The translations under genes were made by a program, and so were the position numbers. Source: a virus (lineage: Duplodnaviria > Heunggongvirae > Uroviricota > Caudoviricetes). Taken from it: a stretch of DNA of 52,243 bases. The DNA lies in IMG/VR virus record IMGVR_UViG_2563366937_000007; one strand, written 5' to 3'. This document shows positions 4,416 to 10,235 of this stretch, piece after piece (position 1 is the first letter of the stretch; every line of letters starts with the position of its first letter). Below the pieces are notes generated by a model, which ran no database searches, was not told the DNA's origin, and was given only the letters and a program-made list of their open reading frames with translations.

Positions 4416-4988
4416 TTATTGGCTGCTAATCGTCATCTCTCTTATTGAACGTAAATCATCCAGGTCATTCAGCTCTTCCTTCATCTCACGCTGACGGCGG
4501 TAAATCTCGTCGTTGCGATCGACCTGCGCCCGGGCCATCGCAGCTGCCAGCTCCTGAAGCTGTACCATTGTCAGTGTGACAAGGTTATTTGCTGCATCCC
4601 CCCATCCCAGCGTTGACCGCGTACCTGCAACCTTTGCCGCCATTGCCACAGGCGCAATACGACTTATTGAGTCTGCACCACCATTCCAGGTACGACCGTT
4701 CCATTCGAATGTGAACGGCTGCGCTTCCTGTTCTGTTCGCCAGGCTTCGATTTCCCGTTTTTTTGCGTCCTTTGCCGCAGCGATAAGTTCTGGCGTGACA
4801 GTGAACGGGGCGATTTCGCCCCATTTGCCACTCTGCAGCTCCTGCCAGACTCGCTGGCCTGTTTCGGCTGTGTCTTCTGCGGTCGCCGTGTACGGAATGG
4901 CTTCTTCCATCCCTTCAAACAGAACATCGCAGTCAATTGCGCCGGATTCCAGGTAACGAGGGTTTTTAATCTCTTTAATCTGCATCAT
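4416..4988 (-). CDS. tfa: tail fibre assembly protein (lambda Tfa-like)
   Basis: 190 aa; start overlaps the stop of the upstream fibre gene; typical Tfa size and C-terminus. Confidence 0.8.
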   Translation of the reverse strand: MMQIKEIKNPRYLESGAIDCDVLFEGMEEAIPYTATAEDTAETGQRVWQELQSGKWGEIAPFTVTPELIAAAKDAKKREIEAWRTEQEAQPFTFEWNGRTWNGGADSISRIAPVAMAAKVAGTRSTLGWGDAANNLVTLTMVQLQELAAAMARAQVDRNDEIYRRQREMKEELNDLDDLRSIREMTISSQ

Positions 4989-7836: not shown

Positions 7837-10235
7837 TTAATACTCTCCCCCATTTGCGCATCAGTTAATTCTTTATGCCAGAGACGAAGATTTCTCAAAT
7901 GGCCGAATAGATGACGAGTTCCCGATGTGGCTTGACCTCCAATTCGAATAAAGGTCCGTGTTTTTACGCCCGTCCACTCCGTTTTCATAGTTTTAGTAGC
8001 CTCACCGTTAGAAACTACTCGTTTAGTACCATCAGAATAAATATTAAAACCACCAATAAATTTTCGAACATCAGTTCGACCAGCAAACACACTAGAAACG
8101 TAAGTACTTGTCGACGCTTTATAAGTTTGCATATAAAGCTGACCGTAATATTTCTCAGTTGTGTTAAAAGCGTATGTAATTGACTCAACAGGTGGCACAC
8201 CAGAAAAATCAAAAATACGCGGTGCTACATTAGGAGGAATATCGCCCCAATTTCTATTAACCTCGACCAGACACGTAAGCGGTCTATTATAGATATTATT
8301 TTCAGTTGGGATCGTCACCATATCACTAGAGCGGGTTGCGGGTGCAGTTGTCGTAATAATAAAAGATGAAGCACATCCGCCGTTTTCAAATTGTGGTGTT
8401 GCGAGGTAAATATAATCTCCCGCTTCAGTTACACCACCTTTTTTCGGCGCATACTGAATCATTGCGCCAATTAAGGTTTCACCTTCAACAGCTTCTATAG
8501 TTGCCTCATAGAAAATCCACCCTGTAACCGGATCTTTACTTGCAGTAGCTGCTATTCTATTGGCTGCTCCGCCAGTTTTTTCTATTATCAGAGTTCCGAA
8601 AGTTAAATAAGCATCTCCTAAAAATGTATAAACCGACCCATCGTATTTTTCAAAACGCAAACGACAACGAAGACCATCAGGAGCTTTAACCCTGCATGAA
8701 ACAGTGCAATACTTATTATCGCCACTAACATCAATCCCCCGGGATGCACTGCATGTATGCAGACTAAGTGCAGATGATTGTCCTGTCATATTATCTTTTG
8801 TTCGCATTTTGGCATATGAAAAACCAAATTCATCAACACCATTATTAGTTTTATCGATATTGCTGGTACTCGTCCATTCAGCGGGAGTATTGGATTTAAC
8901 AAAATAGTTAGTGCGCTGTCCTTCAATCAATAAACCTTCTTTTTCAAATCGTGGCTCATCAATTTTAGCAACACTAAATACGCCTGATTTATTGATATAT
9001 GTGGCAGTTGATGCGCGTTTAAACTTAACAACCTTGTCGCTAGGCATCGTTATTTCATCATCACCAATAACAATCTTTTTATATGATGGCGAAAAGCCCG
9101 TAATCATATCCAGCGAATCGTTAAACGGTATCCACACATCAGGCAGCGGCTGCAATACTTGTTTATACGGCTCCGCAGCCTGGCTTGCATACTCTCTGGC
9201 TGCGTCTTCACTTGCTTTTGCAGCCGTCTGGCTTGCAGCGGATGCTTTCGCTGAGTTCGCAGCCGCTGTTTCGCTTGCCTTTGCGTTGGTTTCACTGGTT
9301 TTTGCAGCTTTTTGACTGTTGGCAGATGCAGTGGCAGAAGCAGCCGCCGCACTTGCAGAACCAGCTGCGGCACTTTCGCTTTCGGCTGCTGCGTTCAGGC
9401 TGTTTTTCGCCGCAGTTTCACTGGCTTTGGCATTCGTTTCGCTGGTCTTTGCTGCCGTCTGGCTGGACTTTGCGTTAGTTTCGCTCGTCTTCGCAGCTTT
9501 CTGGCTGTTAGCCGCAGCAGTTGCTGATCCAGCTGCTGAAGTCGCAGAACCGGCTGCCGCGCTCTCGCTTTCGGCTGCTGCGTTCTGGCTGTTTTTCGCC
9601 GCAGTTTCACTGGCTTTGGCATTCGTTTCGCTGGTTTTCGCTGCCGTCTGGCTGGACTTTGCGTTGGTTTCGCTCGTCTTTGCGGCTGTCTCGCTGTTTT
9701 TCGCGTTGGTTTCTGATTTTTTGGCTGCTGTCGCGGAGTTTGCCGATGCAGTCTGTGAGGCCGCTGCCGCCTGTGCGCTGTTAGCTGCATTCGTTTCTGA
9801 GGTTTTCGCCGCGTTCTTCGATGATGCCGCTGCAGTTTCGGATTTCTTTGCCGCCGCTGCGCTCTGAGAGGCGGCTTCGGCGTTGCGTGCCGCTTCTTCC
9901 ACCATTTCCTCAAAACGACGCAGTGCCTCCGGCATGACATCATCTTCCGTCATGGCACCGAGAAAATCATTCAGCGTACCTGGTCTGGAACCTTCATAGA
10001 CGGTAATGGTCCCGGCATGTGAAGGCGGAAAACCTTCAACCAGCAGGGTGACGCTGTACTGGCCATACTCAACATCCATGCTGTAACGTCCGGCTTCATC
10101 CGGATTTTCAGAAGCCACCGTGTTCACCAGTACCGTGGTGCTGTTACGCTTTGCCTTCAGTTGAATAGTGCAGTTCTGTATTGGTTTTCCCGCACCATCT
10201 TTCAGCACACCTGAAATCTGTACTGCCATACTCAC
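7833..10235 (-). CDS. side tail fibre protein, module 1 (repeat-containing rod, distinct C-terminal domain)
   Basis: 800 aa; Stf-like N-terminus; long Ala/Ser/Thr-rich tandem repeats (AAKTSETNAKSSQT units); about 450-aa C-terminal globular region. Confidence 0.75.
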   Translation of the reverse strand: MSMAVQISGVLKDGAGKPIQNCTIQLKAKRNSTTVLVNTVASENPDEAGRYSMDVEYGQYSVTLLVEGFPPSHAGTITVYEGSRPGTLNDFLGAMTEDDVMPEALRRFEEMVEEAARNAEAASQSAAAAKKSETAAASSKNAAKTSETNAANSAQAAAASQTASANSATAAKKSETNAKNSETAAKTSETNAKSSQTAAKTSETNAKASETAAKNSQNAAAESESAAAGSATSAAGSATAAANSQKAAKTSETNAKSSQTAAKTSETNAKASETAAKNSLNAAAESESAAAGSASAAAASATASANSQKAAKTSETNAKASETAAANSAKASAASQTAAKASEDAAREYASQAAEPYKQVLQPLPDVWIPFNDSLDMITGFSPSYKKIVIGDDEITMPSDKVVKFKRASTATYINKSGVFSVAKIDEPRFEKEGLLIEGQRTNYFVKSNTPAEWTSTSNIDKTNNGVDEFGFSYAKMRTKDNMTGQSSALSLHTCSASRGIDVSGDNKYCTVSCRVKAPDGLRCRLRFEKYDGSVYTFLGDAYLTFGTLIIEKTGGAANRIAATASKDPVTGWIFYEATIEAVEGETLIGAMIQYAPKKGGVTEAGDYIYLATPQFENGGCASSFIITTTAPATRSSDMVTIPTENNIYNRPLTCLVEVNRNWGDIPPNVAPRIFDFSGVPPVESITYAFNTTEKYYGQLYMQTYKASTSTYVSSVFAGRTDVRKFIGGFNIYSDGTKRVVSNGEATKTMKTEWTGVKTRTFIRIGGQATSGTRHLFGHLRNLRLWHKELTDAQMGESIK
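9150..9900. repeat. in-frame coding tandem repeats (42-bp units and a roughly 210-bp duplication) inside the 800-aa fibre gene
   Basis: Protein segment NSQKAAKTSETNAKSSQTAAKTSETNAKASETAAKNS...AAESESAAAGSA occurs twice. Confidence 0.6.

Follow-up and report, generated by a model that had tools for sequence, protein, structure and literature searches.

According to the textbook view, lambda-like phages have one central fibre and one kind of side fibre. The 52,243-nucleotide (nt) stretch of DNA analysed here, IMG/VR virus record IMGVR_UViG_2563366937_000007 (hereafter the window), codes at positions 4416-10235, downstream of the gene for the central fibre protein J, for two side-tail-fibre (Stf) modules in tandem. 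Among the closest described systems is Ur-lambda, in which 12 copies of StfN, the docking domain of Stf, form a collar at the gpV/gpM junction and bear four trimeric fibres (9E7M; Sci Adv 2025, PMC12617516). The locus resembles it in that both fibres have the collar domain PF08400, lie downstream of J and continue after the docking domain in a heptad shaft. It differs in that lambda has one stf with a Caudo_TAP chaperone Tfa, whereas the window has two stf genes, neither with a Caudo_TAP chaperone; a separate tip with an S74 domain belongs to module 1 and a DUF4376 protein to module 2, and the tube protein is of family PF18906, not gpV.

A tail-anchored proximal fibre with a separate distal receptor-binding protein, as proposed for module 1, is known from LtfA/LtfB of the T5-like phage DT57C (PMC4728585) and from phage IrisVonRoten (BASEL, PMC11990801), where the distal protein has a C-terminal self-cleaving chaperone and the proximal fibre an extra lectin-like domain, features that module 1 appears to share. 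The docking domain of those fibres is of another family and the phages are of another type, and only in the window is there a 93-aa (amino acid) gene in between; attachment of the tip to Stf1 is suggested here by gene fusions and by a conserved adaptor. Module 2 has its counterpart in L56/L57 of phage phiP27 and in tail3/tail4 of phage Rac-SA53, to which its fibre and its DUF4376 protein are homologous over the full length, with 77% identity to L56 and 74% to L57 of phiP27. In both settings the late operon ends with it, but the platform in the window is a lambdoid siphovirus that already has an Stf, and the docking domain is a distinct allele. Proteins of the DUF4376 family, V22 gp27 and A5 gp9 of Alteromonas phages, are demonstrated fibre chaperones and possibly transient caps (PMC7289586, PMC10579305).

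Both fibres of the window are probably functional, as two co-transcribed side-tail-fibre modules that are maintained and carried together by the virion; gene anatomy, domain membership and comparison with related loci point to this reading. Comparison loci are designated below by L numbers; L114 and L116 are from IMG/VR. The features of the two modules are the following, in the order of transcription; dS stands for divergence at synonymous sites.

7833-10229, minus strand: stf1, proximal side tail fibre of 798 aa (PF08400, E = 2e-67; PHROG 1419 over the full length)
9945-10229, minus strand: collar (docking) domain of Stf1, residues 1-95 (phmmer match to Ur-lambda StfN chain 9e7m_Ta, E = 1e-48, residues 3-96)
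9279-9698, minus strand: Ala/Ser/Thr-rich heptad shaft of Stf1, with tandem repeats of 21, 42 and 189 nt
8328-8930, minus strand: Stf1 domain related to the RcGTA head-spike fibre, hypervariable among alleles (NCBIfam NF048003, E = 3e-16; profile match to PDB 6tb9, Rcc01080, E = 3e-5)
7854-8042, minus strand: weak C-terminal ConA/Laminin_G_3-like domain of Stf1 (PF13385, E = 4e-4, below the gathering score)
7555-7836, minus strand: conserved accessory protein of 93 aa (PHROG 1361)
6505-7545, minus strand: distal tip protein of 346 aa with a C-terminal intramolecular chaperone (PHROG 4563 over the full length; PF13884)
7453-7545, minus strand: N-terminal adaptor of the tip, residues 1-31 (MATSTVIPDDIKTLKSDVSKLK...), conserved across divergent tips
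7201-7452, minus strand: hypervariable patch of the tip, residues 32-115 (38% aa identity and saturated dS against L116; the rest of the tip is 94-96% identical)
6505-6867, minus strand: Peptidase_S74 intramolecular chaperone of the tip, residues 227-346 (PF13884 at residues 227-278, E = 3e-14, 53.5 bits against a cut-off of 22)
6461-6504, minus strand: inter-module junction, a 44-nt spacer that contains GGAG 6 nt before the GTG of stf2
4985-6460, minus strand: stf2, second side tail fibre of 491 aa (PF08400, E = 7.5e-50, 168.9 bits against a cut-off of 26.6)
6173-6460, minus strand: docking domain of Stf2, residues 1-96 (9e7m, E = 8.4e-17; 7kjk, the XM1 collar spike, E = 4e-10)
4988-5713, minus strand: receptor-binding part of Stf2, residues ~250-491 (94.6-99.6% of nucleotides shared with the fibre gene of a Mu-like E. 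coli prophage)
4416-4988, minus strand: DUF4376 protein of 190 aa (PF14301, E = 1.2e-15, 58.3 bits; PHROG 1141), overlapping stf2 by ATGA

The minus strand downstream of J carries stf1, the 93-aa gene, the 346-aa tip gene, stf2 and the 190-aa gene, in this order and all intact; all five open reading frames (ORFs) that a preliminary description had placed here from the sequence alone were found. It had also called the 93-aa gene coupled to the first fibre, and the stop of stf1 and the start of that gene indeed overlap as ATGA; the stop of stf2 and the start of the 190-aa gene overlap in the same way. Between the stop codon of the 93-aa gene and the ATG of the tip gene stands GAGGAAGAAAA. The lengths of 800 and 501 aa first given for the fibres are those of the maximal ORFs, from GTG 10235 and from position 6490; the likely proteins are shorter, with 798 aa from ATG 10229 (GGAG, 6 nt, ATG) and 491 aa from GTG 6460 (GGAG, 6 nt, GTG). 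Every stf2 homologue begins at the position of GTG 6460, with MSV(V/L)ISG. A pseudogene state of either module was ruled out, as all five genes have the full length of their phage homologues, those of intact loci in isolated phages included.

Stf1 and Stf2 are both members of the lambda-type Stf family, by PF08400 (225.6 bits for Stf1, Pfam gathering cut-off 26.6), by homology to 9E7M and by position downstream of J. With PF08400 in both fibres and PF13884 in the tip, the locus is, as first described, a tandem of two complete fibre modules, the first with a separate chaperone-bearing tip. Only the first ~130-196 residues of the two fibres align in BLASTP, with 36% identity and nothing significant beyond, so that the claim of a shared N-terminal attachment region and no more is borne out; the docking domains themselves are ~42% identical. 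Homology to the E. coli module 1 stops ~13-25 nt past the stop codon of the tip gene. No terminator between the modules was predicted in a scan for hairpin patterns, and since there is neither a predicted terminator nor a switch, the modules are probably expressed together.

Module 1, by its gene content, is a very common three-gene composite-fibre unit of E. coli lambdoid phages; the trio of Stf, 93-aa protein and tip is present in the isolated phages Tritos, 2G7b and PhiR49_1 and in the CFT073 prophage. Stf1 is 97% identical to Stf of PhiR49_1 and 74% to that of Tritos and 2G7b, and its docking domain is 87% identical to lambda StfN (residues 1-93). The 189-nt repeats of its shaft occur in 2.2 copies that match at 86% and are made of 21-nt units. 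Homologues of Stf1 are 736-812 aa long, and this range together with the shaft repeats suggests that fibre length varies by gain and loss of repeats. Residues 441-640 are 57% identical to L116, with saturated dS, between flanks that are 88-100% identical; the distal domain has 15-65% identity to its Tritos counterpart, and the last ~38 residues are conserved among alleles. The C-terminal domains of Stf1 are probably a further binding element. AlphaFold2 models of its C-terminal 453 residues (12 close homologues, pLDDT 36.9) and of the 93-aa protein (22 homologues, pLDDT 49) were too poor to use; the available homologues of both proteins are too similar to give a deep alignment.

The tip protein shows the composite-fibre pattern of a distal protein with a conserved N-terminal adaptor and a variable remainder. 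Among tips with 29% overall identity, residues 1-22 do not vary and residues 1-31 hardly do, and this holds even for the unrelated PhiR49_1 tip of 234 aa. The 93-aa gene was found in 53 IMG/VR loci; the gene after it is complete in 50 cases and begins with MATSTVIP[DGE]DI..LK.DVSK in 47 of these, a motif that spans two tip families there, of 346 aa and ~234 aa. The ratio of non-synonymous to synonymous substitution rates (dN/dS) of the adaptor against L116 is 0.10. Residues 32-115, which differ also from Tritos and CFT073, are a candidate receptor-contact region by this pattern of variation; with hypervariable patches both there and in Stf1 (441-640), module 1 may offer two binding surfaces. 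The 1210-aa fibres of PHROG 6578 correspond to Stf1 at the N-terminal end and to the tip at the C-terminal end, and L118 codes for one fused Stf of 958 aa that ends in an S74 domain. These fusions suggest that Stf1 and the tip make up one fibre; with the conservation of the adaptor, they give indirect support to the tip as its distal part.

The preliminary description had made its reading of the tip depend on the Ser/Lys dyad of the S74 domain. The dyad is present, in GS227DRDLK232 (S-D-x-x-x-K), and neither Ser nor Lys varies in five homologues, which include one with just 29% identity. The motif aligns with SSDRRIKK of S16 gp37, the chaperone region of PDB 6f45 is matched with E = 5.5e-4, and a heptad helix is visible in the sequence after the S74 domain. 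The tip thus resembles the S74 chaperones of K1F endosialidase, T5 pb1 and S16 gp37 in having the domain at the C-terminus, S-D-x-x-x-K and the heptad helix after it; the difference is that the domain stands here on a short, separate protein of 346 aa and not at the end of a long fibre, the fused forms being those of L118 and PHROG 6578. Self-cleavage before Ser227 is predicted by analogy with the family.

The 93-aa protein, for which a role as adaptor or assembly factor of the tip is proposed, has 227 clusters, all from Escherichia and 83-98% identical. In most carriers of module 1 the tip is followed by a gene for a strongly hydrophobic protein of ~97 aa (PHROG 1443; 4248-4541 in L005, with equivalents in L001, L002 and L004), which, to judge from its translation, would span a membrane two or three times. 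It follows the tip in Tritos, CFT073, 2G7b and PhiR49_1 and is missing in the window and in L116. A role as the required fourth part of module 1 was rejected, as the gene is absent here and three IMG/VR loci have it without the tip; the protein is unlikely to be part of the fibre.

Stf2 is 76.6% identical to phiP27 L56 and 86% to its closest relative, P0360 of the Mu-like prophage. Its docking domain is a distinct allele with a loop insertion of two residues. The closest match among 1.84 billion cluster representatives has 69% identity; a separate homologue search with this domain gave short partial proteins only, and a scan of genome contigs with Stf2 gave 11 loci at 40-50% identity. The receptor-binding part has no match in Pfam or PDB. 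Nucleotide identity of stf2 to P0360 is 98.8-99.6% over residues 331-491 (dS 0.016) and 94.6% over residues 251-330, and falls stepwise to 56% in the first 40 codons, where synonymous sites are saturated; by this gradient, stf2 is a mosaic gene.

The 190-aa protein had been labelled tfa. As a family name this does not stand, since the protein belongs to PF14301 and gave no PF02413 (Caudo_TAP) match at E <= 0.01; as a function it agrees with the chaperone activity of DUF4376 proteins (PMC7289586, PMC10579305). V22 gp27 and A5 gp9 share the family and the position directly downstream of the fibre gene, but their kinship with the 190-aa protein is distant, at family level, and chaperone activity has been shown for the Alteromonas proteins only. 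By this analogy, the 190-aa protein probably serves Stf2 as an intermolecular chaperone or as a cap. All related loci pair a Stf2-type fibre with a DUF4376 protein. Myovirus late operons of E. coli, Salmonella and Yersinia have the pair of StfN fibre and DUF4376 protein as their last module, after a baseplate fibre and Tfa, and it is the routine end of P2-like, Mu-like and Rac-SA53-like E. coli prophages (L003, L006-L010, L034). From homology to XM1 gp40, the terminal StfN fibres of E. coli myovirus prophages may be neck collar fibres, which are apparently unstudied in coliphages.

The clade of the Stf2 docking domain (StfN2; StfN1 is that of Stf1) was compared in 80 IMG/VR loci. Sixty of them have a myovirus context, 14 have only Tfa upstream and five are lambdoid; in all five lambdoid loci the StfN2-type gene is the second fibre. 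One of these is L116, a diverged relative of the window with the same right end, 91% aa identity in J and 87% nucleotide identity in module 1. It has the same 44-nt junction with GGAG and GTG, with six differences, and a second-fibre docking domain that is 93% identical to that of Stf2 in aa sequence, the two-residue insertion included. From residue ~112 on, its second fibre is unrelated to Stf2 and contains a Phage Tail Collar domain; the chaperone is a true Caudo_TAP Tfa, which matches PF02413, and both genes are intact. Window and L116 differ in the docking domain by 7.5 synonymous and 8.5 non-synonymous changes, which gives a dN/dS of 0.31 (P = 0.013 against neutrality), a test that rests on these 16 substitutions only. 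The second fibre of L118 is intact as well. With the docking domain kept and the distal part and chaperone exchanged, module 2 as a functioning receptor-binding protein is favoured.

In the proposed mechanism, Stf1 would trimerise and its N-terminal domain would join a collar round the tube/tip junction, as in Ur-lambda, with the heptad shaft ending in the variable domain resembling the GTA head spike and in the weak ConA-like domain. The 346-aa tip would dock by its invariant N-terminus of ~20-30 residues, probably aided by the 93-aa protein, and would be folded by its own C-terminal S74 chaperone and then cut by itself before Ser227. Stf2 would dock by a domain from the clade usual in the terminal accessory fibres of myovirus prophages, with the DUF4376 protein folding or capping its distal part. 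After the recombination that brought it in, docking domain and junction would be kept, and the distal part with its chaperone would be exchanged as a receptor-binding cassette. The four positions of a collar like that of Ur-lambda could be divided between two kinds of trimers, or the diverged StfN2 could sit on another ring, such as the neck as in XM1. As there is one transcript and no switch, virions would probably display both fibre types at once, with two or three distinct binding surfaces simultaneously. A broadened host range is a reasonable inference from the dual modules.

The alternative that survives best is that module 2 is a passenger, dragged in from a Rac-SA53-like or phiP27-like myovirus prophage at the same attachment (att) site, perhaps transcribed but not mounted, with adsorption left to module 1; it is unlikely. 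The tandem clearly arose by recombination, to judge from the sequence comparisons, with a myovirus prophage carrying a terminal fibre cassette. The att-proximal end of the prophage, a 249-aa moron and the start of the DUF4376 gene are 94% identical to a Rac-SA53-like myovirus prophage at the same site, and StfN2 falls within a clade of myovirus context. Capture of a whole block is documented in L114, where a lambdoid stf swapped its distal part with a myovirus fibre and took the downstream block with it, a concrete route to tandem sets; the block (11639-15000 of L114) runs from inside the first stf via Tfa and the second stf to DUF4376 and is 97% identical to L013 and L016 of myovirus context. 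The second stf of L114 is split, so that this case favours the passenger explanation, and relics are common at fibre loci, such as tfa fragments in CFT073, 2G7b and PhiR49_1 and an 88-nt relic at 2658-2745 of the window. What speaks against a passenger is that L116 kept the junction and the unique docking allele across ~13% nucleotide divergence, with a replaced distal part and chaperone that are intact, and that its docking domain has the low dN/dS given above. Furthermore, stf2 has a good ribosome-binding site, the genes of module 2 are coupled with no terminator ahead of them, and no myovirus with this docking allele appears among the 1.84 billion cluster representatives.

The gene of StfN type in L114 (12699-13963) is divided into ORFs of ~304 and ~117 aa. 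A frame change at the same offset was seen by tblastn in at least L016-L021 among L013-L021, which are loci of E. coli and Shigella; the split could mean a frameshift that is conserved, a fibre made by two genes or the spread of a pseudogene.

Several points weigh against two functional, co-carried fibres. In alignment, the Stf2 docking domain is 46-62% identical to StfN of myovirus context and 32-42% to lambdoid StfN, and its fit to this siphovirus tail is presumed from sequence. The receptor-binding part of stf2 shares 99% of its nucleotides with the Mu-like copy and was thus shared recently, so that its intactness alone says little and could reflect recent arrival. The start codon of stf2 is GTG, while that of its homologues is ATG. 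One other tandem lineage, that of L114 and L115, has its second stf divided between two ORFs and an insertion in J. The base of the dN/dS test is small, and the function given to the 93-aa protein and the site where the tip would attach are both proposals.

A second alternative keeps both fibres functional but places them in two whorls, the Stf1 collar at the tube/tip junction and Stf2 at another ring such as the neck; this is quite unlikely. Six trimers of XM1 gp40 bind through their N-terminal domains to gp4 and gp5, proteins of the neck (PMC10457771), and Stf2 matches gp40 (7kjk, E = 4e-10) where Stf1 does not at E <= 0.01. The StfN2 clade is found overwhelmingly in myoviruses that already have baseplate fibres, and the divergence of the two docking domains, with the loop insertion in Stf2, would suit different rings. 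The 7kjk match takes in the coiled coil, however, and is thus not specific to the docking domain. Moreover, both domains match lambda StfN, and E-x-G-x-Y is conserved in a putative beta4-beta5 loop, whose strand assignment is unconfirmed and which in lambda contacts gpV/gpM. A related proposal, also quite unlikely, has two paralogous collar domains on two rings of one siphovirus tail, Stf1 at the tube/tip junction and Stf2 at the neck like XM1 gp40, with Stf2 and its chaperone as a platform-independent 'clip-on' cassette in which only the docking domain of ~95 residues would change between myoviruses and siphoviruses.

A genetic switch of host range by phase variation or by DNA inversion, as in Mu (Gin), P1 (Cin) and e14 (Pin), which likewise encode two receptor specificities at the end of the late operon, and which the word 'switchable' in the preliminary description implied, is most improbable and was dropped, because despite a Pin-like recombinase gene downstream of module 1 relatives in Tritos and CFT073, neither an invertase nor any other recombinase ORF was found between att site and J (1935-10300), where a serine recombinase gene would be expected, nor inverted repeats that could serve as crossover sites in 1-11000, except one 16-nt palindrome, and because both fibre genes are complete, on the same strand and each with its own start site, with no shared constant N-terminal exon.

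The remaining features of the window lie around the fibre operon:

1909-1934, plus strand: core of the prophage attachment site, an exact match to the annotated 26-bp attB of phage Rac-SA53, on the uspF-ompN side
2658-2745, minus strand: 88-nt remnant of a further DUF4376 gene, from its 3' end (76% identity with 4417-4504; direct repeat D4)
4346-4375, plus strand: strong hairpin (13 pairs) that separates the fibre operon from the 249-aa moron convergent with it and marks the end of the late region
10250-10269, minus strand: terminator-like hairpin between J (stop at 10290) and stf1, found by pattern scan and in the sequence

The window is a complete lambdoid prophage in which the genes for J, gpM, tube, coat, portal and terminase were all identified, and it has the Rac-type markers RecE, a TrkH-family gene and a tyrosine integrase. 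By this gene content it is an intact, Rac-family lambdoid prophage (siphovirus) of Escherichia ruysiae. The host assignment comes from exact protein matches; the chromosomal flank has ~91% identity to E. coli. A contig of GCA_902385855.1 matches the window at 100% identity, and the locus occurs at >99.98% identity in two further assemblies and at least six sequencing runs. J (10290-13703, 1137 aa) has all six gpJ Pfam domains and lies directly upstream of stf1, and ORFs like gpM, L, K and I stand upstream of J. The J-stf1 gap (10236-10289) contains no lom gene, only the terminator-like hairpin; PhiR49_1, 2G7b, L114 and L118 do have lom. A similar hairpin precedes stf in the lambdoid locus L018, and by analogy with lambda biology the one here is presumably read through by the antiterminated late transcript.

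The Rac-SA53 att core has a single match in the whole window, so that both fibre modules lie inside one prophage. Two adjacent prophages with an att site between the modules were considered and ruled out, the only core being at 1909-1934 and the gap between the modules 44 nt. Rac-like prophages of siphovirus and myovirus type have this att site in common and have similar right ends, and the exact attB core by uspF-ompN suggests that the two types compete for one site. The TrkH-family potassium transporter gene (32761-34236, minus strand) lies within a seemingly complete Rac-family phage; compare trkG of the defective Rac of K-12. The 249-aa ORF (3593-4342, plus strand, GC 0.37) is convergent with the fibre operon, with a strong terminator, and is a moron at the prophage end. 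It has no match in Pfam, PHROG, NCBIfam or PADLOC, and its E. coli homologue bears the RefSeq name 'zygote formation protein zyg1'; a 154-aa ORF has no match in Pfam or PADLOC. The DUF4376 relic is 1.76 kb away from the live DUF4376 gene, and the low-GC block 2746-4415 looks like an insertion between two chaperone-gene ends.

The tandem arrangement is uncommon but recurring. In IMG/VR, tandem Stf loci were two of 80 in the StfN1 scan and five of 80 in the StfN2 scan. A StfN query on 50,697 phage records gave 318 places in 316 records, hence two copies in at most two records. This module 1-module 2 junction was found in none of the complete E. coli genomes, and no description of a lambdoid phage with two Stf genes was found in the literature, in a search that was not exhaustive.

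All parts of the locus come from known families; new are their combination and a cassette that crosses morphotypes with a platform-specific docking domain. The locus and its few relatives represent a lambdoid lineage, here in a little-studied cryptic Escherichia clade, E. ruysiae, that appears to keep two Stf-type fibres, the second from a cassette that decorates myoviruses, and they raise the testable question of how the 12-place Stf collar would be shared. Modularity is seen at three levels: the docking domain goes with the virion platform, the distal part is exchanged together with its chaperone and, in module 1, an adaptor of ~20-30 residues would let unrelated tips plug into one proximal fibre. 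These levels would amount to practical design rules for retargeting lambda-based delivery particles.

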